In this document: positions 2,453-18,129 of the stretch, in pieces
How the letters are laid out: the number at the start of each line of letters is the position of its first letter
Numbering within the stretch: position 1 is the first letter of the stretch
Assembly (NCBI GenBank): GCA_045615765.1
Contig: JAZLFM010000013.1
Location: forward strand, 29,043-93,042
Length of the DNA: 64,000 nt
Origin: Bacteroidales bacterium
GTDB taxonomy: Bacteria; Bacteroidota; Bacteroidia; Bacteroidales; UBA1715
Reading direction: 5' to 3'
Made by a program: the position numbers and the translations under genes
Notes under the pieces: generated by a model
Database searches by the model: none
Told to the model about the DNA's origin: nothing
Seen by the model: only the letters and a program-made list of their open reading frames with translations

Positions 2453-2644
2453 TCATAATAATTCAAAAAATAGATAAGAAAACCCAACAACTCAATAAGA
2501 ATTATTGGACGATTTTTCTTGCATGTTAATATAAATTGAAGTATATTTACGCACTTATGGAATGCCACGTTCTGTAAGTAAAAAATAAAGGTTTCATTTA
2601 TGCCCGAATCCCTGTTAGGGAACGGTCATATAAAATATAGGCTT

Positions 2645-5600
2645 ATGAAAAGTTTAAATTTTAATTTGAAATGTAGAAGCATCTTTTTGATGGTTTTGGG
2701 AATGTTGTGTTTTTCTGTGACGGGTATTGCAGGAGAGGGGACGGCGAAACCAACAAATGGAGAGTCTGTGGTTGTTTGGAATGGAGGTAATCATAGTGTG
2801 ACAACAGCTGTGTCAAAAAATTCAGTTACATTTACTGTTGTTGGTCCTTCATGGGATGGGACCTCTGAAATGTATATTGGTGTTGTGCTTTCTGGATCTG
2901 GGAATGTTGAAAATCCAAATGAGTATGTTTTGGGTAGTTTTTCTGTGGGAGCTACATCTGTGGCTCAAAAATATGTTCCTTATTTAAATACCGCAGAATA
3001 TGGATACAATGGAACCCAAAATTGTTTATCCATTATGTGTCCTAATAAAGTGGAAAGTAAATTCACTGTTCAGGTTGTTAATGGTGTTGTATATGTTTGC
3101 GATGGCGATAGTCCTTGCGTTAGTACAGATCCTTTTATTGAAGATGGCTATATTCCGACCGTAACTGCATCTGCTACAACACTTTGCGGTGGTGGCGATG
3201 TAAAATTGGAGATGAATACCGTTCCAGCGGACAAATATAATGCAGCGAAAGGGTATCCTACTTACCAATGGTATCGAGGGTCAACGTCTGTCCTTTCAGC
3301 ACATTCCAAAAGTTATACAACAAATCTTGCTGGAACATATTATTGTAAGTTTTGTGTAGCAGATGGTGTGTGTGTGAATTCTGAATCTGTTGAGGTAACA
3401 AGTCCAGGCTCTCCTAAAGTTGTATTGGACAAGAGTAGTTTGTCATTTTCTTCATATGTGGGAGATACTCCTTCGGCTCAAGGTGTAACTGCAACTGTTT
3501 CTGGTGTGTGTGCCGATGTGTTATCTACGGCTTCGTTTGTGGATGGAGAAGATAATTTTACATTGACCGATAATGGCGATGGAACATTTACAATAGCCCC
3601 AAATTATTCAACATCTTCTACTGGTTCATATAGTGGCCATGTAAAATTTAAAATTGATGGTGGTGAAAATGCAATTTTGACACTCGATGGTAGCGTTTAT
3701 GAGCCACTTACTGCAGAATTTGGTAATTGTGCACCTATTGGATCAACTTCGTCCGCTAATTCTGTTGTGACTACAGGTGGAGCTGTTCCATTGTCATACC
3801 AATGGTACAAAGCTAATGGTTCAAAGATTTCTGGAGAAACAAGTGCTTCATGTTCGTCTTCGGAGGCTGCTTATTGTATTGTCAGTGATGCCACAGGTAA
3901 TTCTATTACAGTGAATGTAAAGAAAGATAATGTTACACTAAAAGTAGCAGATCAAAGTGTCGCTTTGTCTCCATGTGGTGTTTCAAAATATGTTGCGACA
4001 TCTATAATTGATGGACATGGTCAAGCCAAATTTGAATTAAAACTAAATGGATCGAATCCAAATTTCACAAAGAAAAATGCAGGTCCAGGAACATGGAGTG
4101 GAGATTATTATCAGAATTATCTTAACGAGTCAGGGACAAATTATTCGTATTATTTTATAATTGATGTAGATAAGAAGGAAATTGAAGCAACAACTACAGC
4201 TCCTAATTGTAATACAGAAGTCCTTGAACCTAAATTAATTCCATCTCAAAAAGCTTTTTGTTCGCCAACAGATGTAATTACATTAGATGCATCAACTACG
4301 GCCGAAAATAATATTATTACTAATCCAGCATCTTGTTATCCACAATATGTATTTAAACGAGGTAGCGAGATAGTTCAAAGTGGTTCAACACCAACATTGG
4401 ATATTACAGTTGCTGAATCAGGAACGTACACATGTGATATTTATGCTTCATCAACTTCGTTTAAAACAACAGATCCAATAACATTGTCTGCTCCAAGTCC
4501 AAGTATTAGTGTAACCAATGGTAAGACTTCGGATGAACTTACAAGTGTTATATTAGAATCACAATTAGGTGAATCTATCCCTTCTAAAACAGTTACTGTT
4601 GAGGTAAACGGTACTTGTGACGATGATGATGTTGTTGTTACTACAACAGGTGATTTTGAGGTTACGAAAACAGGTGTTAATGAATATACCATTAAAGGTA
4701 CTTATTCAAAAGGCGAAAAAACTATAGATCCGCATGCGGGTTCTGTGGTGTTCTCTTCGACAGGTGCTTCTCCTGTAACGGTAGATCTAAAAGGGTATGT
4801 GTTCCCATGTTCTAGTGGTGAAGTTGCTAATTTCAATTTTGAGGATGGAAGTTTACCTACAATAATTTCTACTGGTCTGAAATCTTTCGATGGGTCAGAT
4901 AAAAATAATGGGTATAGTATTACATCTAAGAAAGTTTTTGATAATGGTGATAATCTTGTTGGTACTGCAGGGAAAGTTCTTCTGACAGCTTCGAGTCAAA
5001 ACAAATATACCGCATTAACTTTAAATACAACAAGTTTGGAGGGTGCAGGTTTCTTGTTTGCAATGGATTGCGGAAATACTTCTTATAGTGGTAAAGTTTA
5101 TGTTAAGGTAGGAGAAGAAACATGGACTATTGAAAAAAATAAAAAAGAAAGAATGTCCTTCTTTGTACCTGCTTCTTCATCTGTTGATGTAACGGTGGAA
5201 AATAATAATAATTTGTCTGTTTATTTTGATAACATTTCTGTTACAAAATTATGCCCTCCGACAGTTTCAGTTTCGATTTCTTCAGGTTCTGCTTGTGATG
5301 GAACAAGTGTGTTCTCTGCAACTCCGGAAGGCGCTATGCCATTTGAATATGAATGGTATGTTGATGGCGCTTTGGCAAAATCTCGTTCGGAGGAATCAAC
5401 CTATACAAATCCGGAATCGTTGCCTGATGGAACACAAGTACATGTAAAAGTCTGGGATTCATACGGTTTGGTTGCTGAATCTGAAGATTTTATCGTTCAA
5501 TGTATGAATGTAAAACCTAGTTTTACAAATAATAATGTATGTATAGGTGGAGAAACTGCTCTTCGTATAACTGATACAGAAAAAGCTACAATTGCAGCTG

Positions 5601-8600
5601 CTGGTATGCCTCAACCTCTTTCATATCAATGGTATTTTAATGGTTCTCCGAAAGGTGGAGCCTCTACTTCGTACAGTGATTTAAACTTTGCATCCGTTTC
5701 TTCAAGTGATGCAGGTACATATACATTATATATTATAGATGCAAAAGGTAAACGATATGCAACCGGTTCTGCTGAATTGACAGTAAAAATGCCAAAATTT
5801 ACTGTTGACAAAAGTTCTTTGACTTTATCTGAAGGTAATTCTTATTCTGGAACCATAGAGGTAACACCTGCAGATGTTTCATGTTTTCAAACTGCTTCTG
5901 CAGAATTTGTTGGTGGAGATGCAGGTAAATTAGAAGTAACAAATACAGGAAATACATATACAGTTGCTTTGAATGCAGCGAGTCAATCGGTTGCCGGTGT
6001 GTATGAATCAACGTTGGTATTGTATGATAGAGTAAAGTCAGAAACAGAAAAAGATGTGGCTGTTTCTGCAACGGTTCCTCTTACTTTGTCGCCAATAACA
6101 TCTGCACGACCATGTGTTGCTGCTGTTGGATTTAGTGCAACAGTTCCAGCTACAAAAACAAATGCCACTTGCGTTTGGAAGGTGAATGGTACAATTGCAA
6201 AAACAGAGACTATTACAGCCTCAAGTTCAGAAACATCGATAATTTTCAATCCTAGTAAAAACCCAGAAGTTGGTGATGTTATTTCTTTAGAGGTTACAAC
6301 AGCTGATGGTTTAACAGAAACTAAAAAATTCACAGTAGAGAGTTGTGGTTTAACAATGACAATTGCTCCAACTAGTTTCGAACAAGCAAAGAGTTATGTG
6401 GTTTGCCCGGGGCAGGAGTTCTCAGTAGATTTTGATTTAAAGTTTGTTGGCGGTGTGGTTCCTGATGGAACTGAATATACATATTCAATAACTTCTACAT
6501 CTCCTGTAACATTGGCGGATGCTGGTGGAAGCAAAACAGGAACAGTTACTTTCCCTACAACTCCTGGAGATTATACCTATACAGTTACAGTTGACTTTAC
6601 TGTTGATGGAGAATCATATACAAATTCAGTTTCGTTCTTTGTAACTGTTTTAGATGATATTAGTTTAAATATAGAGGATGTTAATGGTTGTCGACAAGAG
6701 AATATTGTTTTTTATGAGAATACGGGTGCGGACAATATATATTGGTATACAGAATCAGATGCCTATGATTTGTTTGGACCTGAATCAGGGAAAATAGATG
6801 TTGGGAAGTCTTTTTTCAGTGGGGCTACAGTTGAAGGGAAAAAGTATTATTTTGTAGTAAAATCAGATTTAGGTTCATTTTTTTGTAAAGAATCTAATGC
6901 TAAAGCATTGCTAAATGATGATGATCTTATATACATATATTCTCAATATTCACAGCCAGTAAGTGTCTGTCAAGGTTCTATAGCAGGTGATTCTCCTAAT
7001 GTTTCTAAGGCTATAAATTGCTCAGGCACGACATTGTCTTCTGCAAGTCTTTCTTATCAATGGTATAAAAATGATATAAGATCAATCTCTGGTGCAATAG
7101 AAGTGGATGGAGCAACAAATTTTGAATTAGATGTAGAGAAAATCAATACGGGAAATGTTGGTACATACTATTATTTTTGCAAAGTAACTTATCATGAATA
7201 CTCAACTTATTCAGATTTTACAACTATAACGGTTACTCCTTCTCCAGATCCAATTGTTATTAGAGATACTGCAGTATATAATGGTAAGTATTTTATCGTT
7301 CCTGTAGATAATGTACAGATTTCTACAGATATGTCTTCTTGGAAGGATCGCAAAAAGGGTGATGAAATACAAGTTTGGGGAAGTCCAAAGGAGAATCAAT
7401 TTTATGTAAGAGCTAAACCTGATGCTACAGGTTGTGCTTCTGAACCAACTACATTCTATGTTTGGGCAGGTCAAGGTGGTGTTGGCTATATTTCCGCTAC
7501 GTCAGATTTTGGAGATCAAACAAAATGTATGAATGAGAAAGCTGATACATGGCATGTACAAGGAGCAAGTCCATGGGGTTTGAATAACTTAACATACCGT
7601 TGGTATTTGGCTAAAGGTCCTGGTGAAACTTCTGGTGGAACTTTAGTTTCTTCGGAACAATCGTTTACTCCTCCTACAAATAAAGCTGGTGTATTCTATT
7701 ATTATTGTATTGTTGGTTATACAGGTCAAACTTCTACATATGTTTTAGGAACATATTCACTTACAGTTCCTGGTTTTAATGATTTTATAATTGAAGATGT
7801 TGCTGTTTGTGCGAACTCGCAATCTATTGATTTTGCTTATGCAAACGATACTTATGCAGTTTCATATGGTTTGAATGCTGCTGCATTGGACAATTCTCGT
7901 GCTCAAGGAAGTACAGCTAATATGAATATGGGAACTTCAGGAACAGCTCCGTTCCTAGTTAACTCTACAACTCCTGTATATTTCTCTGTAACAGATGAAA
8001 ATGGTTGTAAGGTTACAACTAAAGCAAACGTTGTTGTTTATGACAATTCTGTTTCAATAACAGACGAAAGTGACATGAAGGACTTTGCTGTTTGTCAAAC
8101 GGCAGAAGTTCCTACACTTGCAATCGACGCTATTCTCTGTGGTTCAGATGGAGATGTTTCTTATCAATGGTATAAAGCTTCGGGAGAAACTACAGAAGGT
8201 GTAGCAATTCCAGGTGCAACAACAAATACATATACACCAAGTACAACTGATGATCTAAATACAAATTGGTATTACTGTGTTGCATCTTATGGCACATATT
8301 CAGCACCTTCAAAAAGAGCGAAAGGAACCATTTATCCAACTCAAGATCCAGAGTTAACTGCTAGTATTCCTCTTACAGATGGTGTTTTGGATATGTATTG
8401 CACGGAATCGGTAAGTTTTACTGGTAATAAAAATAATTTTACAGGTTTTGTCTGGACTTGGGAAACTGTTGATCCTGAAACTAATGAAGTTACAGTTGTA
8501 GGAAGCAATACAACTGTTGTAAACGGAATGACCTATAGTCCAAGTTGTGATGATGCGACGCAACCAACCCAATTCCATTTACGTGTTATTGATAAAAATG

Positions 8601-11600
8601 GTTGTCCTGCAGAGGCAATCATTCCTATGAATATTCATCCTCTTGGAAAAACATATTACTATTGTGGCCCAACAGCGGTTGAATATAGAGGTCAAGATTT
8701 ATCGGCCCCTTGGGGATTAAATGATTTGAATAATTGGCATACCAATTCAAATTGTACAGGTGATATTCCAACAAGTTTTACTGCTCCTGCAAGTAAATTT
8801 ATAGTTGATAAGCCTGGTGTAGAATTATTGGCTGAACAAACATGGGAAGTAGGTGGTGATGGTACTCGAGTAGAAGTAGGTACAGGAAAATGGAATAAAA
8901 TGTCGGAAAGTGTTGCTGGTGCAAATGCGTCAAATCAATGTTATACGGGAGTATATTGTGGTCGTTGCGAGTACTTTAGCACATTAGGCTCTAATAAAGT
9001 TGATGAGGCATTTGGTACAATTGGTAGTACAGATTTTCGTAGAGACGCATCAAGTTTGAAAATTAGTGGTACGATGAAATGTACAGGCAAGTCCGAAATT
9101 GACGTTAAAGGTGGTGGTGCTTTAGAAATTGCAACAGATTTGGGAACTCCAAAAATTGGCAGCACTGAGGAAGATATTCACTATCAATACGATCCTGATA
9201 AATCAACTTCGTACAATGTCTTGGTTGTTCCAGGTGGAAGTGTAACATATTCTGGTAAAGGTGTTACGAAAATTCAAGAAGGAACATACTCTCAATTGTA
9301 TATCAATCAATCTGATCCTTCTGTAAATGTAGTGTTCCCTGAAGGTACTGTAGAAATCAAGCAATTATTAAAATATGATACAGAAATTAATAATAGTAAG
9401 ATAGATGTACCAGAATCAAGCATAGTTACTTATACAGGTAGATTACAGCAAGAAATTGCTCCGATGGCATATTCAAATCTTACTTTAGAAAACACAAGTA
9501 GAAAGTTCATGATTGGCGATGTAACCGTAAATGGTACTATGTATGTTGGCCCATCAACAACATTAGTAGGAGGTGATGAGGCTAATGTGTTAACTTTAAC
9601 TAAAGGTGGTGTTGGAGCAGATAAACCATTAGATTATAGAGGAGCGAAAATAGAGCCTGGAAATCTCACTGTAGAATATACATCTTCGGCAAAAACTGAA
9701 GTTGCAGCTATTAATTACTATAATTTAGCATTAACAGATGTTAATATAACAAAAACAGGAACGACAGAAAAAACAATAACTAAGATTGAAAATGTTTCAG
9801 CTGGTGGAGAAAGAGTATTCCCTCCTGTAACAGGTGGTGGAAAAGCTATAGGAATTGCAGGAACTATTGTTCCTGACCCTTCTGCAAAAGTTACTGTTAC
9901 TGGTAGTGAAGTGATTTTTAATGGATCTACTCATCAAGAAATGCCTGCATTTACTTTCGATAAATTAACTATCGATAATAGTTCTGTTAAGAATAACACA
10001 ACATCTAATATGGATAATAAGAACTGTGTAAGTATAGCCGGTGATGTTGTTGTTCTTTCTCAATTAACAATGAAGCAAGGTATCTTGAATACAGCGGATT
10101 ATGTAGTTGATAAGATAAACTATGAACCAAAATATCATTTAAGTGTTAAGAATTCAAGTGTTACCTCTATTTCAGACGGACATTTTAATTCAACAAAAGA
10201 CGCATCTTTCATTGTTGGTCCTGTAACTAAAAATGTTGTAGCAGGTTCTTCAACTAATAAGACAGAAATACCAGTTGGTAATTTTTCAAACTGGTATATG
10301 CCAATTACAATGTCATCAATTTCAAATGATGGTACTGTAACTGTTAGTGCAGAGTCTGGAACAACAGGCTCGAATTTAAAAGAACCGCTCGAAACAATTG
10401 ATCATGATAAATACTGGCATGTTAGCGGAACGTATGGTAAAGCAAGTTTTGGTCTTGAAAGTCGTTATGATTTACAAGGATCTAATTGTATCGCTATAGC
10501 AAGTGGTTTAAGTGAACAATTTGTTACATTGAATGGTACAGTGGATGGAAAGGGTATTTCTGATTCAAAACTTCCGGAAACAGCTTTGTCTGATGCTTAT
10601 TTAACCATGGGTAAACAAGTAGTTGTTCGCAAAAAATATTACTATGATTGTAGCGGAAACAAGGATATAACTGATATTACATCTTGGTACACAGCAAGCA
10701 ATGGAGCAGGTACACAAGCAATCTCATTCAGTGAAGATTATGCTACATGGATAGTTGAATGTAATGCTACAATTGCAACTAAGCCGCTTGAGATAACAGG
10801 TTCTGATGTTGTGGTAGAATTGAACGATGGTGTAAAATTAACAGCATACAATACGTTTAAAACGTCAGCTTTAAAACAAGGAAAATCAAGCCAATTGTAT
10901 ATTGGTAAGAAAACAGAATGTACCGTTTATGGTTCTCATGAAATTGCAGATAAAGCGGTTATAAACAATTATGGTGTACTAAATACGTATAGTAAGACTC
11001 TTGCTGTAAATAATGGTGCGACTGTCACCAACTTTGCTGGGGCTCAATGGAATATGTATAATGTTTCTCTTAAATTGGCTGCTAGTTCACAATCAACTAA
11101 TGAGAATGTTGGTCATATAATTAACTATGGAGCTGTAAATATGACCAACAGTAGTTTGTCTGTTGAAGGTCGTTTCACTCAATTAAAGAATGCAACGGGT
11201 GCTATTTGGAGTATTGATAATACTATGGCTGCAAATAATAAGTCTGTTGTATTTGATAAAGCTGAATTTAGAACAGAAAGAACTGATTATCAATATGTTT
11301 CATTAGAATGTGGTTCTACATTCTATGTTAAACACTCTGATTTAACATTCTGGTATGGTGGTATGGAAGACGATAATGCCTATATAAATGGGGACTTGAT
11401 AGTTGAGGATGGTAACATGCTTGTTCGTCGTCAATCTCAAGGTGGTGGTAAGTATAATATCACAGGTGGAGGTTGTGGTAATATATATTTGACCGATACA
11501 GATAAGAGTGGTGATGGTTTATTGACTATTCAAGGTTCAGGAGGTTCAGAATTTAATGTTAATGGAACTGTGTATGCGATGGGTGTTGTAACAGAAGGAG

Positions 11601-12460
11601 GTTCTGGTGACAAGATTAATGTAAACGAGGGTGGTTTCATGTTTATTGGTAATATGGGTGCTACACTTCCTCAATATAGTTGGGTATTTACTATTGATGT
11701 AAAGAATGGTGGTACTTTGAATTACTGTGGTAACAGAACAGCTCTTGGTGATAATATTGGAACCAATGGTGGTACTTTGAATTATGCAGAAAGTTTTTAT
11801 GGAGCAGGTTTGGATAACCCTGTAAACCAAGGAGACTTTACTGCTAATGGCGGTAATATTTATGCCTTGTATGAGGATAATGACGCATGTATGGCAGATT
11901 ATATAGCTCGTACAAAAGCAGAAATTAGTAGCCTATTACCTGTAGAATTTACAATGCTTTATGGTGTATGCAAAGATGAGTTAGTTGAACTTCATTGGCA
12001 AACAGCTTCGGAAACGAATAATGAATATTTCACTATTCTTCGTTCATTCGATGGAATAGCGTTCGAAGAAATAGATTATGTATGGGGTGCAGGTACAACA
12101 ACTGCCATTCATAACTATGTATTCTATGATACGGATGATAAAGAAGGCGGCATAGTTTACTATAAACTTCGTCAAACAGATTACGATGGTAATGTAACAG
12201 AAACAAAGGTTATTGCTGTACAAACATGTGGTAAGAATGCACAATTCTGGGTTAAGAAAGATGAAGTTGAAGTTATGTTTAACAATCCTGAGTCATCAAA
12301 TCATGTTGTGATAACTACTCTTACAGGTAAGATTGTTTATTCAAAAACATTTAAGGATGTAGAATCTGCTCGAATAGCGTTACCACAGGCTAATGGTATT
12401 TATATTATTAGTGTGATCGATAGACGACAGATTACTAGTGAGAAAATAGTGAAATACTAG
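2645..12460 (+). CDS. Giant secreted T9SS cargo protein (~3270 aa): multiple Ig-like domains, a long uncharacterised beta-helix-like region, an Fn3-like domain and a type A C-terminal sorting domain
   Basis: Single ORF 2600..12460. The likely start is ATG 2645 (MKSLNFNLKCRSIFLMVLGMLCFSVTG signal peptide). A recurring Ig-domain signature is present: PTYQWYRG, LSYQWYKANG, FEYEWYVDG, LSYQWYFNG, LSYQWYKND, LTYRWYLAKG, VSYQWYKASG, each followed by GTYYC/YYYC-type strands. The C-terminus matches a Por secretion tail. Confidence 0.9.
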   Translation: MKSLNFNLKCRSIFLMVLGMLCFSVTGIAGEGTAKPTNGESVVVWNGGNHSVTTAVSKNSVTFTVVGPSWDGTSEMYIGVVLSGSGNVENPNEYVLGSFSVGATSVAQKYVPYLNTAEYGYNGTQNCLSIMCPNKVESKFTVQVVNGVVYVCDGDSPCVSTDPFIEDGYIPTVTASATTLCGGGDVKLEMNTVPADKYNAAKGYPTYQWYRGSTSVLSAHSKSYTTNLAGTYYCKFCVADGVCVNSESVEVTSPGSPKVVLDKSSLSFSSYVGDTPSAQGVTATVSGVCADVLSTASFVDGEDNFTLTDNGDGTFTIAPNYSTSSTGSYSGHVKFKIDGGENAILTLDGSVYEPLTAEFGNCAPIGSTSSANSVVTTGGAVPLSYQWYKANGSKISGETSASCSSSEAAYCIVSDATGNSITVNVKKDNVTLKVADQSVALSPCGVSKYVATSIIDGHGQAKFELKLNGSNPNFTKKNAGPGTWSGDYYQNYLNESGTNYSYYFIIDVDKKEIEATTTAPNCNTEVLEPKLIPSQKAFCSPTDVITLDASTTAENNIITNPASCYPQYVFKRGSEIVQSGSTPTLDITVAESGTYTCDIYASSTSFKTTDPITLSAPSPSISVTNGKTSDELTSVILESQLGESIPSKTVTVEVNGTCDDDDVVVTTTGDFEVTKTGVNEYTIKGTYSKGEKTIDPHAGSVVFSSTGASPVTVDLKGYVFPCSSGEVANFNFEDGSLPTIISTGLKSFDGSDKNNGYSITSKKVFDNGDNLVGTAGKVLLTASSQNKYTALTLNTTSLEGAGFLFAMDCGNTSYSGKVYVKVGEETWTIEKNKKERMSFFVPASSSVDVTVENNNNLSVYFDNISVTKLCPPTVSVSISSGSACDGTSVFSATPEGAMPFEYEWYVDGALAKSRSEESTYTNPESLPDGTQVHVKVWDSYGLVAESEDFIVQCMNVKPSFTNNNVCIGGETALRITDTEKATIAAAGMPQPLSYQWYFNGSPKGGASTSYSDLNFASVSSSDAGTYTLYIIDAKGKRYATGSAELTVKMPKFTVDKSSLTLSEGNSYSGTIEVTPADVSCFQTASAEFVGGDAGKLEVTNTGNTYTVALNAASQSVAGVYESTLVLYDRVKSETEKDVAVSATVPLTLSPITSARPCVAAVGFSATVPATKTNATCVWKVNGTIAKTETITASSSETSIIFNPSKNPEVGDVISLEVTTADGLTETKKFTVESCGLTMTIAPTSFEQAKSYVVCPGQEFSVDFDLKFVGGVVPDGTEYTYSITSTSPVTLADAGGSKTGTVTFPTTPGDYTYTVTVDFTVDGESYTNSVSFFVTVLDDISLNIEDVNGCRQENIVFYENTGADNIYWYTESDAYDLFGPESGKIDVGKSFFSGATVEGKKYYFVVKSDLGSFFCKESNAKALLNDDDLIYIYSQYSQPVSVCQGSIAGDSPNVSKAINCSGTTLSSASLSYQWYKNDIRSISGAIEVDGATNFELDVEKINTGNVGTYYYFCKVTYHEYSTYSDFTTITVTPSPDPIVIRDTAVYNGKYFIVPVDNVQISTDMSSWKDRKKGDEIQVWGSPKENQFYVRAKPDATGCASEPTTFYVWAGQGGVGYISATSDFGDQTKCMNEKADTWHVQGASPWGLNNLTYRWYLAKGPGETSGGTLVSSEQSFTPPTNKAGVFYYYCIVGYTGQTSTYVLGTYSLTVPGFNDFIIEDVAVCANSQSIDFAYANDTYAVSYGLNAAALDNSRAQGSTANMNMGTSGTAPFLVNSTTPVYFSVTDENGCKVTTKANVVVYDNSVSITDESDMKDFAVCQTAEVPTLAIDAILCGSDGDVSYQWYKASGETTEGVAIPGATTNTYTPSTTDDLNTNWYYCVASYGTYSAPSKRAKGTIYPTQDPELTASIPLTDGVLDMYCTESVSFTGNKNNFTGFVWTWETVDPETNEVTVVGSNTTVVNGMTYSPSCDDATQPTQFHLRVIDKNGCPAEAIIPMNIHPLGKTYYYCGPTAVEYRGQDLSAPWGLNDLNNWHTNSNCTGDIPTSFTAPASKFIVDKPGVELLAEQTWEVGGDGTRVEVGTGKWNKMSESVAGANASNQCYTGVYCGRCEYFSTLGSNKVDEAFGTIGSTDFRRDASSLKISGTMKCTGKSEIDVKGGGALEIATDLGTPKIGSTEEDIHYQYDPDKSTSYNVLVVPGGSVTYSGKGVTKIQEGTYSQLYINQSDPSVNVVFPEGTVEIKQLLKYDTEINNSKIDVPESSIVTYTGRLQQEIAPMAYSNLTLENTSRKFMIGDVTVNGTMYVGPSTTLVGGDEANVLTLTKGGVGADKPLDYRGAKIEPGNLTVEYTSSAKTEVAAINYYNLALTDVNITKTGTTEKTITKIENVSAGGERVFPPVTGGGKAIGIAGTIVPDPSAKVTVTGSEVIFNGSTHQEMPAFTFDKLTIDNSSVKNNTTSNMDNKNCVSIAGDVVVLSQLTMKQGILNTADYVVDKINYEPKYHLSVKNSSVTSISDGHFNSTKDASFIVGPVTKNVVAGSSTNKTEIPVGNFSNWYMPITMSSISNDGTVTVSAESGTTGSNLKEPLETIDHDKYWHVSGTYGKASFGLESRYDLQGSNCIAIASGLSEQFVTLNGTVDGKGISDSKLPETALSDAYLTMGKQVVVRKKYYYDCSGNKDITDITSWYTASNGAGTQAISFSEDYATWIVECNATIATKPLEITGSDVVVELNDGVKLTAYNTFKTSALKQGKSSQLYIGKKTECTVYGSHEIADKAVINNYGVLNTYSKTLAVNNGATVTNFAGAQWNMYNVSLKLAASSQSTNENVGHIINYGAVNMTNSSLSVEGRFTQLKNATGAIWSIDNTMAANNKSVVFDKAEFRTERTDYQYVSLECGSTFYVKHSDLTFWYGGMEDDNAYINGDLIVEDGNMLVRRQSQGGGKYNITGGGCGNIYLTDTDKSGDGLLTIQGSGGSEFNVNGTVYAMGVVTEGGSGDKINVNEGGFMFIGNMGATLPQYSWVFTIDVKNGGTLNYCGNRTALGDNIGTNGGTLNYAESFYGAGLDNPVNQGDFTANGGNIYALYEDNDACMADYIARTKAEISSLLPVEFTMLYGVCKDELVELHWQTASETNNEYFTILRSFDGIAFEEIDYVWGAGTTTAIHNYVFYDTDDKEGGIVYYKLRQTDYDGNVTETKVIAVQTCGKNAQFWVKKDEVEVMFNNPESSNHVVITTLTGKIVYSKTFKDVESARIALPQANGIYIISVIDRRQITSEKIVKY
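12242..12457 (+). other. T9SS type A C-terminal sorting domain of the 2645..12460 protein
   Basis: The terminal ~72 aa read ...VVITTLTGKIVYSKTFKDVESARIALPQANGIYIISVIDRRQITSEKIVKY. This is the typical Por_Secre_tail pattern (hydrophobic strands, GIYIIxV, terminal K-hydrophobic-x-K/Y). Confidence 0.8.
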
Positions 12461-12484
12461 TTCTAAGTGTGGATAATTATTTAT

Positions 12485-12520
12485 GTAGAGACGCGGTGTA
12501 AAGCGTCTCTACTTGTTTTT
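12485..12520 (+). terminator. Rho-independent terminator of the giant gene
   Basis: Perfect 10-bp stem GTAGAGACGC (12485-12494) / GCGTCTCTAC (12503-12512) with an 8-nt loop, followed by TTGTTTTT. Confidence 0.8.
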
Positions 12521-12618
12521 ACCCTTTATTGATTTTCTCAATAGCGCAAAAACCGCTGAATAATTGACCAAAAGCAAAAAAAATCAGACAAATCTGCTTG
12601 TGGTCAAAAAAACATTAT

Positions 12619-12626
12619 TATTTTTG
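12619..12626 (+). promoter_or_regulatory. Bacteroidetes -7 promoter element TATTTTTG
   Basis: Exact TAnnTTTG match 52 nt upstream of ATG 12678. Confidence 0.4.
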
Positions 12627-12677
12627 TTTGTTCTAAAAATGTATAAAGCAATTAGTTGTTTAATTAAAGTAATAAAA

Positions 12678-14369
12678 ATGAAGAAAAAATCTATTTTTCA
12701 GATTGTTTTGGGTTCTGCAGTAGTATTAGCAGTAGGCTGTAGCAGTCCAAGCAAAATGTTGAAAAACGCCAACACAGTGCGTTACAATGTGAATCCAGAT
12801 CCACTAGAAATGAAGGGTGACAGTGTTGATGTAGCAATCACAGTTACTTATCCTGCAAAATATTTCTTAAAAAGTGCAGTGATGAATATCACTCCAGTTT
12901 TGAAATCAGAAAGTGCTTCTGCTGAATTCCCAGAAGTTGTATTGCAAGGCGAAAAAGTTCAAGGTAATGGCGGTGTAATCTCAAGCGCTGGTGGAACTTA
13001 TACATACAAAGGAAAAGTAGCTTATACTGATGCTTTATTACAATCAGAATTGTTATTGAAGAGCAAAGTTTCTGTTAAATCTAAATCAGTTAACTTGCCA
13101 GAAGTAAAAATCGCTGATGGTGTTTTAGCAACAGCTTCATTGTTGCAAAACGAAGCAAAACCAACAGTTTCTGCTAACCAATTTAAACGTGCAGAAGTTC
13201 TTACTTCAGAAACAGAACTTGTATTCTCTATCAACAGCGCATCTGTTTCTTCAAAAGAACTTTCAAAACAAGGTATGAAGGATGCAAAAGCATTCGCTAA
13301 AAATGCTGAAAAAGATACAACTTTAGCATTGAAAGGTGTAGCAATCGTAGGTTATGCATCTCCTGATGGTCCAGAAGATGGTAACGAAAGTTTGGCTAAG
13401 AATCGTCAAGCTGCTGCAGAAAAAGCATTGAAAGGTTCAATCAAAACTTCTTACGAAGCTAACTATACTGCAGAAGACTGGGATGGTTTCCGTACTTTAA
13501 TGGAAAACTCAGACATTCAAGATAAATCAGCTATTTTGAACGTACTTTCTCAATATTCAGATCCTGTTGTTCGTGAAGCTGAAATCAAGAAAATGGGTAA
13601 CGTTTACAAACAAATTGCAGACGAAATCCTTCCTCAACTTCGTCGTTCAAAAATCGTTGTAAGTGCTGAAAAAGTTGGAAAATCTGACGAAGTTCTTCTT
13701 CAAGCTGGTTTAGGTAAATCTGATACTAAATTGACTGAAGACGAATATTTATTCGCAGCTACTATTGCTGAAAATGCAAAAGATGCTGAAAAAATCTTAA
13801 CAAATGCTGCTACAGCTTTACCAAACTCTTGGAAAATCGTTAACAACTTAGGTTGTGTACAAATGGATCAAGAAAAATACGAAGATGCTCAAGCTTCTTT
13901 CGCTCATGCTGATGAACTTTCAAACGGTGATGCGGCTGTTAAGAATAACATGGGTGTTCTTGCTGTAAGACAAGGTGACTTGGCAAAAGGTTTCGAATAT
14001 TTCGAAGTTGCTCAAGGTGCTGGTCCAGAAGTTAAATACAACATGGGTACTGTAAAAGTAAAAGAAGGTGACTATGCAAAAGCTGTAGATTTGTTCGGTA
14101 GCAATCAAACATTCAACGCTGCTTTAGCTAAATTGTTGGCTGGTGATGTTGATGGTGCATTGAGTACTGCTAACTCAATTGAAGAACAAGATGCTGCTAC
14201 ATATTACTTGAAAGCGATTATCGGTGCAAGACAAAAAGATTTCAATAATATGATTTCTAACTTGAAATCTTCTATCGATAAAGATTCTGCTTTCAAAGAT
14301 AGAGCTAAAAAAGATATGGAATTCAGAGATTTCTCTGACGACTCAGAATTTGAAGCTCTTGTAAAATAG
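12678..14369 (+). CDS. OmpA-like domain lipoprotein with C-terminal TPR repeats
   Basis: The track ORF starts at a TTG at 12564. I prefer ATG 12678, which gives MKKKSIFQIVLGSAVVLAVGCSS (signal peptide plus lipobox Cys). An OmpA-C-like motif is present (IVGYASPDGPEDGNESLAKNRQAAAEKAL). The C-terminal half has TPR-like helices (EKYEDAQASFAHA, GDLAKGFEYFEVA, GDYAKAVDLF). Confidence 0.8.
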   Translation: MKKKSIFQIVLGSAVVLAVGCSSPSKMLKNANTVRYNVNPDPLEMKGDSVDVAITVTYPAKYFLKSAVMNITPVLKSESASAEFPEVVLQGEKVQGNGGVISSAGGTYTYKGKVAYTDALLQSELLLKSKVSVKSKSVNLPEVKIADGVLATASLLQNEAKPTVSANQFKRAEVLTSETELVFSINSASVSSKELSKQGMKDAKAFAKNAEKDTTLALKGVAIVGYASPDGPEDGNESLAKNRQAAAEKALKGSIKTSYEANYTAEDWDGFRTLMENSDIQDKSAILNVLSQYSDPVVREAEIKKMGNVYKQIADEILPQLRRSKIVVSAEKVGKSDEVLLQAGLGKSDTKLTEDEYLFAATIAENAKDAEKILTNAATALPNSWKIVNNLGCVQMDQEKYEDAQASFAHADELSNGDAAVKNNMGVLAVRQGDLAKGFEYFEVAQGAGPEVKYNMGTVKVKEGDYAKAVDLFGSNQTFNAALAKLLAGDVDGALSTANSIEEQDAATYYLKAIIGARQKDFNNMISNLKSSIDKDSAFKDRAKKDMEFRDFSDDSEFEALVK

Positions 14370-14390
14370 ATAGAATTCATTTTATATAAG

Positions 14391-14426
14391 AAAGGGGAGT
14401 GCGAAAGCATTCCCCTTTTTGTTTTT
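14391..14426 (+). terminator. Rho-independent terminator
   Basis: Stem GGGGAGTGC (14394-14402) / GCATTCCCC (14407-14415) with one G-U pair and a GAAA tetraloop, then TTTTTGTTTTT. Confidence 0.85.
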
Positions 14427-14495
14427 ATTGGGAAATAATGTTACATCTTGGCTGTAGGACTTGTTACAGGTATATTCGTGATATTTTCGATGAAT

Positions 14496-14965
14496 GTTCT
14501 TGTTCTTTCTTGCAACAGGTCAAGAAAGAACCAAAGAACCCCGCCGAACACCTGCTTCGCTAAAAATCACCTTCGGACGGCTAAAAAAGACTATGAGTTG
14601 CTCCGTAAACTCCGCAACAATCGTCTTTTTCTTTACGCCGACCTACGGCGATTTTCTTAACGCGCGCAGCTGAATCGGCTTTGTTGTCTTTACATAGATG
14701 ATAGTTTGAAAAGATAAGGTAGCATCTGTCGTATAGAAAAACGTACAAAGAAAGACCTTTCTCGACTTCACGAATGAGCGTTAAGAAAAACGACGTAATG
14801 AAGCGTATAAAAGGATTTGATGCCTCTGGCAATTGTATATATGAATCTAACCACGCGGCAGCCCAAATCCTTTAGCGGAATGCAGTCGTTTTTTAGCGAA
14901 GGCGTGGGTCGATGGCGTTCTTTTGGTTACTTTTCTTTCGCTATAGAAAGAAAAGTAACAGAATA
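14496..14965. repeat. ~470-bp imperfect palindrome: two diverged inverted copies of a ~230-bp unit, each ending in a perfect hairpin. Candidate MITE-like element or structured RNA locus
   Basis: The left-end hairpin is GTTCTTTCTTG/CAAGAAAGAAC (14502-14512/14521-14531). The right-end hairpin is GTTACTTTTCTTTC/GAAAGAAAAGTAAC (14926-14939/14946-14959). The inner arm 14529-14566 (AACCAAAGAACCCCGCCGAACACCTGCTTCGCTAAAAA) matches the reverse complement of 14889-14928 (AACCAAAAGAACGCCATCGACCCACGCCTTCGCTAAAAAA). GATTTTCTTAACGC (14650-14663) matches the reverse complement of 14778-14791 at 13 of 14 positions. There is no credible ORF. Confidence 0.6.
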
Positions 14966-15034
14966 TCGTTTACACCAAATGGTATATCAACTAAAAATAC
15001 AGAGAAGATTTTCGTCTTCCCTGTATTTATGTTT

Positions 15035-16516
15035 TTACTTATTCTTAACAATTCGCTGTATTGCAAATTTGCCGGATATAACGGCATTTGGCAATCCGCC
15101 TGGAGGAAGTGTCCATTGTCCTGCAATATACGCGTTAGAAAGCCCCTGAATACGTCCGGAATGAACTTCTCGTTTTGTTTTGTGCGTGGTAATAAAACTC
15201 ATATAGGCACCTTTGTATGTACCTAACAGTTTTGTATAACTGTATGGAGTAACAACTTCTTCGATGTGGAGCAATCCTTGCAATTGTGGATAATGAGTAT
15301 ATATACGCTCAATTATTTGGTTCGCAATGTTTTGTTTTGTTTCAACATAACTTGTCTCGTCGGTATGAAGTTTTTCCCATAAATCGTAATCTTTTTCGTC
15401 TTGCAATATCATAATTTGCAAGATAGATTTTCCTTCTGGAGCAAACGATGGCTCATAGTCAAACGACTTGATGGCAATTGTGTCTTGTTTAGATCCTAAG
15501 ATATCGAATGGTTCGCATTTAAAAAGAACCATATTCGATAATTCTTCGACTTTTTTATCACAACTTAGATAAACATTAAATGAACTAAATGTTGGGTATG
15601 TTTCAGGATCTATATATCGTTTAGAGAAAAATTCATCCATGTGGTGTTTGCCCACAATATTGTATGTTACATCAGCGTCGCAAGCGAACACAAAATGATC
15701 ACCCGTGATTGTTTGTCCGTCAGAGCAAAAGGCTGCTGTTATTTTCCCGTTTTCTTCAGATATATTGGTAATTGTTTTATTTGTAAAAATAGTTCCTCCT
15801 AGCGATAGGAATTTCTTGCGCATTCGTGCTGCAATCCCTATAGAGCCTCCTTTAGGTAATGCACCGTTTCCAGAAAGAAATGTTCCGTACATGTACAAAA
15901 TACCAACAGTATTAAAAGAACTTGGCAGGTACGAGAGAATAAGATCTTGTACCATTTTGTTTTTGAATCGTTTAATGTATTCCGTAATCGGAACACTATT
16001 GTATTTTGCTGCATAAGGGAGAACAGGAAGGATTTTTTTTACATATCGCATATTGTCCCAGAATCCCATTTGTTCCTTTGGTTTGATAGCTGGTACTTCC
16101 ATATGTGAAAATGCACGCAACATCTTGCAGAAATGTTTTATTTCTTTGCTGTCTTCCGGAGCAAATTCAAGAAGTTCTTTTTCAAGTTTATTTACGTCTT
16201 TCCAAACATGTAGTTGTTTCCCGTCTTGTTCAATGGTAAGAAACTTGTCGTGTTGTATGATTTCAATATCGTCACCTAAAGCACCGACATCTTTCCATAC
16301 TTCGTAGATTTCTTTTTGTGGAGAGGTACCTGTCATCCAATGTACGCAGTTATCTATATGAAAACCGTTTCGGTTCCAACCTGTACATTGACCACCAACA
16401 ATAGAATGACGTTCGTATATTTCGCAATCGAAGCCATTCATTTTTGCGTATATTCCAGCGGCAAGGCCAGCAATCCCTCCGCCAATAACAATTATTTTAT
16501 CCATAAATTTTACCAA
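15035..16516 (-). CDS. NAD(P)/FAD-dependent oxidoreductase of the phytoene-desaturase (CrtI-like) family
   Basis: 493-aa ORF with an N-terminal Rossmann motif (KIIVIGGGIAGLAAGIYAKMNGFDCEIYERHSIVGG) and overall amine-oxidase/desaturase-like length. The start may be the internal ATG at 16504. Confidence 0.75.
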   Translation of the reverse strand: MVKFMDKIIVIGGGIAGLAAGIYAKMNGFDCEIYERHSIVGGQCTGWNRNGFHIDNCVHWMTGTSPQKEIYEVWKDVGALGDDIEIIQHDKFLTIEQDGKQLHVWKDVNKLEKELLEFAPEDSKEIKHFCKMLRAFSHMEVPAIKPKEQMGFWDNMRYVKKILPVLPYAAKYNSVPITEYIKRFKNKMVQDLILSYLPSSFNTVGILYMYGTFLSGNGALPKGGSIGIAARMRKKFLSLGGTIFTNKTITNISEENGKITAAFCSDGQTITGDHFVFACDADVTYNIVGKHHMDEFFSKRYIDPETYPTFSSFNVYLSCDKKVEELSNMVLFKCEPFDILGSKQDTIAIKSFDYEPSFAPEGKSILQIMILQDEKDYDLWEKLHTDETSYVETKQNIANQIIERIYTHYPQLQGLLHIEEVVTPYSYTKLLGTYKGAYMSFITTHKTKREVHSGRIQGLSNAYIAGQWTLPPGGLPNAVISGKFAIQRIVKNK

Positions 16517-17964
16517 GTTCTTGCGCGACTCTTGCTCTTCTTTTGAGCTGCAGCTTCTTTCTTTTGTCGTATAACCATTTTTGCAAATGTTTCTTGAAAA
16601 TCATCAGCTGGCGTTGGAGCTGATATCATCTCAATTTTCCCATTCTTGTCGAGAAGCATGTATGTTGGCATTCCTCGTAGTTTATATTGTCGGCCGATTT
16701 CAGGATTGTCGCCGGCATAAAGAAATGTCCAGTTGTATTGTGGGTTTGCTTTTTTAAATGAACGGAAGTCTTCAAATGTTTTCTCGTAACTCAATGTTAC
16801 GATATTTAAGTCCTTCTTCGTCTTTTCATTCATTTTTCGAAGCACTTTATAGTCTTTTATACATGCGTAATTTTCAGAGCGACAGAAGTTTAGATATACA
16901 TATTTACCTTTGAATTTATCCAATGTGTACAAAACACTGTCTTGGTTATATAATTCAAAATATGGTGCATTGTCGTGAAATTCCAATTGCGTGTATTTCT
17001 TTTTTATGTTTTCGGCAATGTTCTTATGTTCAGGAACTGTCGACATAATTATAAGAGAATCAAGTGTTTGATATACAGGAGCAGGAGGGAAGACATCAGG
17101 ATCCTTCAAGCAATCATCAAGACATTGCAATAACAATAATTCTTTTAATGTATCATTGCGAAAAACAATATTTTTCTCCAATGTTTTCTTAAACATTGTT
17201 GGACTTTTCCCGTAGATAATATCAATTTTCAAATTTTTACCCATGTCGTGCGTATGGTTATTGATGATGTAGTCTTTCCACATCATTTTAAATAGGTTCA
17301 TATACGCAGGATTGTAGTAATAGAACGCTTTGTTTAAGAAATGTTTGCGTGTAACCCCCATCTTGTCGCGTTGGTATGCCATGTAGCGAAGCGCGTACAT
17401 ACGATAGTCTTTGTAAACCTTGAAAAAGATATCGTTGCAGTCTCCAAAAGTGCTATCTACGAGAGTTTGAAATTTCTCAACTTTTGCCTTATCGCGAGTG
17501 ATGTAGATTTCTTGAAAGTTATCGCTCAGGAAATTCTCATACATAGAGTTAAACGACAGCAATAATATATTGATATCGTTAGGATCGCTATTTATCACAC
17601 CAAGACTGATGTCTGTTGGCTCGTAGTATGGATTAAGCTCCTGTGCCAGAGTTTTTTCTTCGTATGGTGGCATTGCAATCTGGTATTCTTTGTTTGGCGA
17701 GACAAACAAGAAGGCCTTGTAAATGCCTAAATACATGTATATTTCTCTTGTTGTAGTACAATCGAAAGTATAGGTGAATCGGCCAAGCGCATCGGTAGTA
17801 AAAGAACCAATAAGTTCTTCATTCTTAGTAAAATAGTCTGAATATTGATATACGCTAATAGTTTGATTAGCATATTCTTCGGAGCTACCGTTGATTGTAA
17901 CAGTTTGAGCGAAGAGTTCGAAAGAAATAAATAAAGTACAATATATGGCGAGAATTTTTCGCAT
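16510..17964 (-). CDS. Secreted TlpA/AhpC-like thioredoxin-fold protein with a degenerate active site
   Basis: Signal peptide MRKILAIYCTLFISFELFAQ. The C-terminal thioredoxin fold reads GKYVYLNFCRSENYACIKDYKVLRKM ... GMPTYMLLDKNGKI. It overlaps the downstream oxidoreductase gene by 7 nt, consistent with an operon. Confidence 0.7.
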   Translation of the reverse strand: MRKILAIYCTLFISFELFAQTVTINGSSEEYANQTISVYQYSDYFTKNEELIGSFTTDALGRFTYTFDCTTTREIYMYLGIYKAFLFVSPNKEYQIAMPPYEEKTLAQELNPYYEPTDISLGVINSDPNDINILLLSFNSMYENFLSDNFQEIYITRDKAKVEKFQTLVDSTFGDCNDIFFKVYKDYRMYALRYMAYQRDKMGVTRKHFLNKAFYYYNPAYMNLFKMMWKDYIINNHTHDMGKNLKIDIIYGKSPTMFKKTLEKNIVFRNDTLKELLLLQCLDDCLKDPDVFPPAPVYQTLDSLIIMSTVPEHKNIAENIKKKYTQLEFHDNAPYFELYNQDSVLYTLDKFKGKYVYLNFCRSENYACIKDYKVLRKMNEKTKKDLNIVTLSYEKTFEDFRSFKKANPQYNWTFLYAGDNPEIGRQYKLRGMPTYMLLDKNGKIEMISAPTPADDFQETFAKMVIRQKKEAAAQKKSKSRARTW

Positions 17965-17990
17965 GTAAAATACATTTTTTCGTAACGATG

Positions 17991-17998
17991 CAAAGGTA
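17991..17998 (-). promoter_or_regulatory. Bacteroidetes -7 promoter element (TACCTTTG on the minus strand)
   Basis: Plus-strand CAAAGGTA is the reverse complement of TACCTTTG, an exact TAnnTTTG match 27 nt upstream of the start codon at 17964. Confidence 0.45.
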
Positions 17999-18038
17999 AT
18001 AAAATCTTATGGAATATTATAGGAACATATAAAAATCA

Positions 18039-18054: not shown

Positions 18055-18129
18055 GGCTTTGTAGTTCAATGGATAGAATAGTAGTTTCCGGAACTAGTGA
18101 TTAGGGTTCGATTCCCTACAAAGCTACCA
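18055..18129 (+). tRNA. tRNA-Arg (anticodon CCG), CCA encoded
   Basis: Hand-folded cloverleaf. Acceptor GGCTTTG/CAAAGCT. D arm GTTC-AATGGATA-GAAT. Anticodon arm GTAGT-TTCCGGA-ACTAG (anticodon CCG at 18088-18090). Variable loop is 4 nt. T arm TAGGG-TTCGATT-CCCTA. Discriminator A, then CCA. Irregularities are a G1-U72 wobble and a G27/G43 mismatch. Confidence 0.8.

Follow-up and report, generated by a model that had tools for sequence, protein, structure and literature searches.

The Correia/NEMIS repeats of Neisseria, the ERIC/IRU repeats of enterobacteria and the RUP/BOX repeats of Streptococcus pneumoniae are MITEs with stable internal hairpins, and the Correia, ERIC, BOX and REP repeats are documented as stable 3'-end or processing structures. 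In REP/BIME elements, the hairpins act single-stranded and are mobilised by RAYT transposases. MITEs are very numerous in Bacteroidota, with 81,380 distinct ones reported (PMC11602168). Here we analysed an intergenic region within a window of 64,000 nucleotides (the whole stretch of DNA under analysis) from a Bacteroidales bacterium of the UBA1715 lineage. The region is most likely a structured, mobile repeat of the non-autonomous type that was inserted recently, and positions 14496–14965 are two diverged inverted copies of one non-coding module of ~200 nt. The family is of the MITE/REP-like kind that is already known; no description of this family or of its conserved 12-mers was found in the searchable literature.

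The region lies in the 665-bp gap (14370–15034) between two convergent genes, a TPR/DUF3868 lipoprotein-like gene on the + strand to the left (12678–14369) and a FAD amine-oxidase-type oxidoreductase gene on the − strand to the right (15035–16504). Flanking host DNA on the left contains the intrinsic terminator of the TPR/DUF3868 gene (14389–14420, + strand), which was found by a terminator scan, and flanking host DNA on the right contains the terminator hairpin of the oxidoreductase gene (14995–15028, − strand), which was found in the inverted-repeat listing. Both terminators are hairpins bordered on either side by T-rich tracts. The first-pass annotation had described the gap as without a credible ORF and as richer in G+C than its surroundings. 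In agreement with this, the local ORFs had no Pfam match, a 404-aa concatenation of all six-frame segments had no relative among 5.8 billion proteins, and the G+C content of 14496–14965 was 42.1% (peak, 45.5%) compared with 36.7% in the window, a modest enrichment. Searches by blastn with the region and with the subfamily A MITE described below against plasmids and phages gave no matches or chance matches, scans of viral contigs with three patterns gave none or chance coding matches, and exact-protein look-ups of the proteins flanking the region in the window returned no record.

The inserted DNA measures ~545 bp (roughly 14431–14975) and contains two repeat units. Its left tail (14431–14495, limits approximate) is missing from the empty sites described below, is not matched by an equally long stretch on the right side, and probably represents what lies outside the hairpin of the left unit. 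The left unit (14496–14690, − strand), delimited by a profile match and by its fold, consists of a hairpin, an A/T-rich linker and a rod, and it is assigned to the strand on which family members form the larger number of standard pairs. Its perfect 11-bp hairpin is located at 14502–14512/14521–14531 (GTTCTTTCTTG / CAAGAAAGAAC), and its rod, a long imperfect hairpin at 14543–14680, contains the blocks CTTCGCTAAAAA (14555–14566), GCTAAA (14580–14585) and TTTTCTTAACGC (14652–14663). An AT-rich spacer of 64 bp without a profile match (14691–14754) separates the bases of the two rods and holds the centre of symmetry at ~14722. The right unit (14755–14965, + strand), inverted relative to the left one, was delimited by a profile match, by BLAST to the related contig L001 and by its fold; its end at 14755 was set by the point at which L001 and the window diverge. 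Its rod (14762–14913) contains the blocks GCGTTAAGAAAA (14778–14789), TTTAGC (14871–14876) and TTTTTAGCGAAG (14890–14901), and its perfect 14-bp hairpin is located at 14926–14939/14946–14959 (GTTACTTTTCTTTC / GAAAGAAAAGTAAC).

The shared blocks emerged when the left half was aligned with the reverse-complemented right half. The block CTTCGCTAAAAA at 14555–14566 matches TTTTTAGCGAAG at 14890–14901 in inverted orientation, TTTTCTTAACGC at 14652–14663 likewise matches GCGTTAAGAAAA at 14778–14789, and compensatory differences between the two terminal hairpins are visible in this alignment. The perfect terminal hairpins of 11 and 14 bp, the inverted arms with their perfect pair, the deeper pair and the GCTAAA motifs on both sides had all been read from the sequence in the first-pass annotation, and each of them is present. 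Its further claim, a near-symmetrical structure centred near 14720, holds for the centre, the architecture and a few blocks, and does not extend to the sequence as a whole. The two halves are only weakly alike, with 72% identity over 64 nt by BLAST (E = 0.12) and 51–56% in global alignment. The units stand tail-to-tail with their rod bases facing the 64-bp spacer, and this arrangement produces the apparent 470-bp palindrome. Since they are too diverged (51–56%), the units are not a recent duplication of each other; the pair possibly originated from two insertions or from an older composite that was inserted whole. No second locus of the module was detected in the 64-kb window by BLAST or by profile search.

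Analysis by RNAfold showed that the whole region is far more stable than dinucleotide shuffles (z = −6.6 on the + strand and −6.15 on the − strand), and each half alone folds at z −3.3 to −6.3 on either strand. The fold of the left unit had an energy of −78.9 kcal/mol (z = −6.26) and that of the right unit −70.2 kcal/mol (z = −4.0).

We searched metagenome contigs for further copies. A first pattern with 21 specified bases around TTTTCTTAACGC was over-specified and gave 0 matches, and the pattern CTTCGCTAAAAA-N13-GCTAAA matched at least 120 metagenome loci. Among the matches listed for the latter pattern, TTCTTAACGC followed 46–118 nt downstream in 56, and ~67 were relatives as judged by eye. 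The family members were retrieved with this 18-base pattern from the window, so that the sample of the family is biased by its seed. A profile HMM (nhmmer) was built from 47 metagenome copies, with the window left out; it matched at least 72 fetched loci, one copy each, and it matched the window exactly twice, at 14957–14764 (E = 5.6e-19) and at 14498–14665 (E = 3.1e-12). When the 18 seed bases were masked, the two window matches remained (E = 3.3e-8 for the right unit and 1.4e-3 for the left unit), and the masked-seed matches fell in the other half of the model. The neighbour genes of the copies were unrelated from locus to locus and stood in either orientation, and some copies began 0–40 nt past the stop codons of small genes, among them SymE-family toxin genes. 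No paired units were found in the other fetched loci, all 72 among the matches listed being single. The family is common across metagenomes of gut and rumen, and its hosts are apparently Bacteroidales of these habitats.

Every member consisted of a hairpin, an A/T-rich linker and a rod of 140–170 nt with a variable tip. The terminal hairpin of the family is perfect, 8–14 bp long and AT-rich, its 5' arm being rich in T and its 3' arm rich in A. A conserved helix motif, in which GAGCGUUAAGAAAAU.. pairs with ..AUUUUUAGCGAAG, occurs twice in tandem and makes up the rod; on one strand, GAGCGUUAAGAAAAUCGG pairs with CCGAUUUUUAGCGAAG in the first copy, and GAGCGUAAAAAAUCAG pairs with CUGAUUUUUAGCGAAG in the second copy further in. 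In an alignment of 23 non-redundant sequences, which included both window units, standard pairs occupied 92.4% of the cells compared with 80.9% in shuffles, and 0 of 500 shuffles reached the observed value, although such shuffle controls overstate significance because the members are related to one another. When the partners were slid by 1–3 columns, pairing dropped to 37–46%. Both sides had changed in 26 of the 52 pairs of the 23-sequence alignment, and in the terminal hairpin (helix 9) this was the case for 6 of 8 pairs. An independent structure prediction for the opposite strand likewise had compensatory changes, in 12 of 21 pairs. These compensatory changes in the helices indicate that the fold is conserved beyond sequence alone, and the fold is kept in both window units though only about half of their bases are shared. 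The first-pass annotation had named an Rfam scan and an examination of conservation and covariation as checks on the region. Conservation and covariation are both present in the family alignment, and the Rfam 15 scan of the window and 8 member loci, run at gathering and at permissive thresholds, returned nothing at gathering thresholds and no consistent match below them.

The same locus was then compared among relatives of the organism, an uncultured Bacteroidales of the gut. The best matches of the window oxidoreductase in the genome collection were MAGs from horse faeces and of UBA1715 (86% identical). Three contigs, L002, L081 and L209, keep the same convergent gene pair with only 70–120 nt between the genes, and the TPR protein of L209 is 96% identical to that of the window. 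In all three, both terminators were intact and zero trace of the element was found by alignment or profile search; since these three contigs all belong to a single, closely related lineage, their empty sites amount to about one comparison. Similarity between the window and the empty sites ends at ~14428 and resumes at ~14975–15013, which gives the window its ~545 bp of extra DNA. No clear target-site duplication was seen at the insertion, which is flanked by TATTGG and AAATGG, an imperfect repeat at most, in a comparison with a strongly diverged genome. No short terminal inverted pair was found at 14431/14975 of the window composite, whose sole inverted repeats are the complete units themselves, 51–56% identical. 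More distant relatives, with TPR proteins 79–83% identical, have another downstream gene and no module. In L001, a segment is 95.6% identical to 14754–14821 of the window by BLAST. Its rod base is located 26 nt past the oxidoreductase stop codon, and its orientation is opposite to that of the nearest unit in the window, so that the arrangement is neither that of the window nor a simple inversion of it and has a different junction. The L001 contig ends inside the element.

Subfamily A, to which most loci belong, is a textbook MITE of 365–500 bp. It has terminal inverted repeats of ~25 bp (GGGACAGCCGACATATCGGGTGGAG...CTCCACCCGCTTTTTCCGCTGTTCC), and perfect 8-bp target-site duplications were found in 8 loci (TAATATCC, TTAATTAT, CTAAGTAG, GTTATCTT, CTAAACGT, AATATTAC, GACAAAGT and CCTATAAC). 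Its copies contain optional internal blocks, and four of them are broken by further insertions. Subfamily A is a proven MITE, and terminal inverted repeats with 8-bp duplications are the signature of a DDE double-strand transposase. Subfamily C has different, probable terminal repeats (ATAGAATTAGGTA/TATCTAATTCTAT), recognised by eye, and subfamily B and the window type have no recognised terminal repeats. In subfamilies B and C, in the window type and in L001, the rod base forms the exact boundary of the element, and subfamily B has a terminator-like hairpin and a T-run downstream on the better-pairing strand. Thus, backbones that differ in their terminal repeats carry one and the same module of ~200 nt. 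Among the fetched loci, no autonomous transposase-bearing copy sharing the subfamily A ends was found, and the copies had no neighbouring gene for an integrase, a Y1/HUH enzyme or another recombinase.

Taken as a whole, the region is likely to be a mobile non-autonomous repeat, present as two inverted, diverged copies between the terminators of convergent genes. Two inverted copies of a ~230-bp MITE-like or REP-like repeat was one of two options put forward in the first-pass annotation, and it is this option that the data support: each half separately matches one profile, the loci are dispersed, subfamily A shows terminal inverted repeats with 8-bp duplications, and relatives have empty sites. 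The inserted DNA is short (~545 bp) and non-coding, the family occurs in many contexts, and the window locus is polymorphic for presence and absence. The copies in the window would have arrived by transposition, probably in two events or as one composite, and the subfamily A MITE would be moved in trans by a DDE-type transposase.

The family resembles bacterial MITEs in being short (200–500 bp), non-coding, intergenic and multi-copy, with empty sites in relatives, and the modular build of subfamily A with its optional blocks recalls BOX. It differs from MITEs in that the module sits in backbones with different terminal inverted repeats (subfamilies A and C) or without them (subfamily B and the window), and in that compensatory change maintains its helices at a sequence identity of only ~55%; to our knowledge, such conservation of helices has not been described for the interior of ordinary MITEs. 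The window further departs from a MITE with short terminal repeats by holding two units tail-to-tail. With REP/BIME elements, the family shares palindromic units at gene 3' ends, a location between convergent genes and inverted pairs. Unlike REP sequences of 20–40 nt, however, the unit is ~200 nt long and has two structural domains; neither a RAYT-like gene nor a conserved tetranucleotide of the GTAG type was seen, and subfamily A has DDE-type duplications. In size and conserved structure, the module is comparable to RNAs described in Rfam, namely the BTnc sRNAs of Bacteroides, HEARO/omega-RNA, the IS605-orfB motifs and 6S RNA, but neither the window nor the 8 member loci matched any Rfam 15 family.

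The module may be kept because its single-stranded fold is in use. By analogy with the repeats documented as stable 3'-end or processing structures, the fold would most likely act in RNA that is read through from neighbouring genes, and we hold with moderate confidence that it may matter in transcripts reading into the module. A tentative and less likely reading goes further and regards the module as an undescribed mobile structured class of gut Bacteroidales, either a functional RNA or a folded single-stranded DNA site and not mere filler of MITEs, that rides on several unrelated transposon backbones and would also serve as a 3'-end cassette directly behind small genes such as those of SymE-family toxins. 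It might then stabilise or process mRNA, act as an antitoxin-like RNA or be a recombination site.

Whether one strand of the module is favoured bears on another reading, in which the two units are divergently transcribed paralogous sRNA genes and the module is an RNA gene picked up by MITEs. Transcription would then run outward from the spacer and stop at the bidirectional terminators of the flanking genes. We consider this unlikely. The same strand was the more stable one in 49 of 49 modules, with a mean difference of 11.5 kcal/mol, and paired cells made up 92.4% on the better-pairing strand compared with 83.7% on its complement. The consensus helices contained 137 G.U cells versus 36 A.C cells, and five wobble positions were near-invariant, which would speak for sRNA genes, although most wobble cells stem from invariant sequence blocks. 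In the window, the better-pairing strand is − in the left unit and + in the right one, and it thus points outward from the centre in both, as the sRNA reading would have it. Dinucleotide-shuffle z-scores, on the other hand, favoured neither strand (−3.0 and −3.4 on the two strands, the better-pairing strand being lower in 26 of 49 modules); because these scores were equal on both strands, the energy asymmetry seen in 49/49 modules was downgraded, and the strand specificity of the module is no more than suggestive. The orientation of the copies relative to neighbour genes showed a mild bias that was not significant (30:20 and 27:17).

The signals for transcription are similarly divided. The promoters of Bacteroidetes have a −33/−7 consensus in which the −7 element is TAnnTTTG. 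At the spacer, TTTG at 14680–14683 is followed 18 nt on by TAGTTTG, a near match to these motifs, and the T-rich tracts of the flanking terminators and the terminator-like hairpin with a T-run downstream of subfamily B copies would provide places to stop. However, the candidate promoter is imperfect (TAnTTTG versus TAnnTTTG) and is not conserved in members; a promoter search of the spacer and of the sequence upstream of the rods in members yielded only imperfect, unconserved matches. Copies of subfamilies B and C end at the rod base and thus bring no upstream promoter with them, and close relatives live without the element.

Still more doubtful is the explanation that the module folds as single-stranded DNA and serves as a structure-specific site for a recombinase or an HUH-type enzyme, with a mobility separate from the MITE backbones that works through the fold. 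Integron attC sites, IS200/IS605 ends and REP/RAYT are described examples of this kind. The helices covary while a few sequence blocks are invariant, pairing is strand-asymmetric, and the same module is found in backbones with different terminal repeats, all of which would fit such a site; so would the boundary at the rod base, which often lies 0–40 nt past a same-strand stop codon in the manner of a cassette junction. Among these, the integron attC site is likewise a long imperfect palindrome with a fold conserved more than its sequence and with strand-asymmetric pairing, and the copies that begin 0–40 nt past the stop codon of a small gene resemble gene-cassette junctions. Compared with the R'' (RYYYAAC) and R' (GTTRRRY) boxes of attC, however, the conserved boxes of the module are reversed, with GTTAAGA on the 5' arm of the better-pairing strand. 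Whereas attC sites measure 57–141 nt, the rod measures 140–170 nt and is accompanied by an extra hairpin; integrase and cassette array are both lacking, and the copies in the window follow no cassette ORF. We therefore rejected an attC identity on account of the reversed boxes, the size, the extra hairpin and the lack of an integrase. Against a single-stranded DNA site in general, no integrase, Y1/HUH or recombinase gene lies beside any fetched copy, and the sole demonstrated mobility signature, terminal inverted repeats with an 8-bp duplication, is that of a DDE transposase.

The other option of the first-pass annotation was a long rod-like structured RNA. This option stands as far as each unit is a conserved, covarying rod, and falls for the 470-nt whole, which we regard as very improbable as one rod-like or multi-branched RNA. 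The minimum free energy fold does close 14533–14570 onto 14889–14928 around three inner branches (z = −6.6), but this closing stem consists of the homologous blocks of two inverted units pairing with each other. The 72 other fetched members are single units, which shows that conservation does not apply to the 470 nt as a whole, the covarying structure lies within the unit, and the unit in L001 ends at the equivalent of 14755. Contradicted by the single-unit family members, the single 470-nt RNA was rejected. Bacteroidales carry many invertons, and the perfect 12-bp inverted pair around ~320 bp, together with the opposite orientation of the segment shared with L001, could suggest an invertible phase-variable switch with the inverted arms as recombination sites, but we rejected this equally remote reading because the inner end of the L001 unit abuts a gene at a junction that is not a simple inversion, the segment, with the 3' end of a gene on either side, offers a promoter nothing to drive, and the same 12-mer is a family-wide block in single units; moreover, no recombinase gene is present within 12000–18000.

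Under the favoured explanation, a mobile non-autonomous repeat present as two inverted copies, the practical consequence at the window locus itself is small, the insertion lying between two terminators, where it is probably neutral for the host or has a mild insulating effect. Small mobile repeats nevertheless shape gene ends, break metagenome assemblies, as in L001, and can rewire mRNA stability. The module is conserved by compensation and recurs both in several backbones and behind toxin genes, which suggests that the fold itself is used. If so, the family would represent a new and abundant class of structured RNA or DNA hairpin in gut and rumen Bacteroidales, whose RNA biology is poorly charted, and would provide a ready marker of strain-level variation in presence and absence.

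In nine subfamily-A MITE copies (L092, L101, L108, L110, L124, L162, L165, L177 and L196), an insertion of approximately 55 nt was found within the loop of the perfect hairpin, and some MITEs of this subfamily carried an optional 28-nt block beyond the rod. In four further copies (L096, L098, L187 and L188), the rod itself was broken by a separate insertion. Taken together, the loop insertions, the optional block and the rod interruptions indicate that the subfamily-A copies evolved in a modular, nested fashion. At three subfamily-C-like loci (L117, L157 and L121), a second conserved non-coding block followed the module, approximately 140–250 nt beyond it, and read tattcacagatcagcgt.cgccc...acggtaggtaca..ggggcg.acacaccactatattcac. 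The pattern scan of metagenome contigs also caught tandem arrays of CTTCGCTAAAA-type repeats (L090/L191 and L104/L107/L120/L198); these are unrelated short repeats with a period of approximately 20–25 nt and were rejected as members of the module family.

In the window, the TPR/DUF3868 gene (12678–14369, + strand) is preceded by a giant ORF of 3286 aa (2600–12460, + strand). In relatives whose TPR protein was 79–83% identical (L211–L231), the TPR gene was followed by a gene for a giant Ig-like/Big_2 protein rather than by the oxidoreductase gene; therefore, synteny at the TPR locus shifts over short evolutionary distances. A tRNA gene (18055–18126, + strand) was the sole Rfam match at the gathering threshold across the entire window.

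In L001, a contig of a horse-faeces MAG, the oxidoreductase gene had no terminator hairpin of its own, and the rod stood in its place. This contig broke off within the repeat unit, 84 nt past the oxidoreductase gene (contig end, 5414–5497), as is typically seen where assemblies break in multi-copy repeats.

At the subfamily-B loci, the better-pairing strand also encoded a small ORF, which lay 0–200 nt before the rod start. The small ORF of these loci matched Pfam SymE_toxin at 35–41 bits (gathering score, 29), and this was recorded at L155, L175 and L193 (and L122), approximately 150–1000 nt from the module. The matching ORF formed a divergent pair with an XRE-type HTH gene, which showed 54–72% identity from locus to locus. 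A different ORF, of 160 aa, took the place before the rod in L194 and, as a remnant, in L175; there the rod began 0–22 nt past its stop codon. The placement of rods after SymE_toxin-matching ORFs and the 160-aa ORF suggests that the module is able to serve small genes as a cassette at their 3' end.
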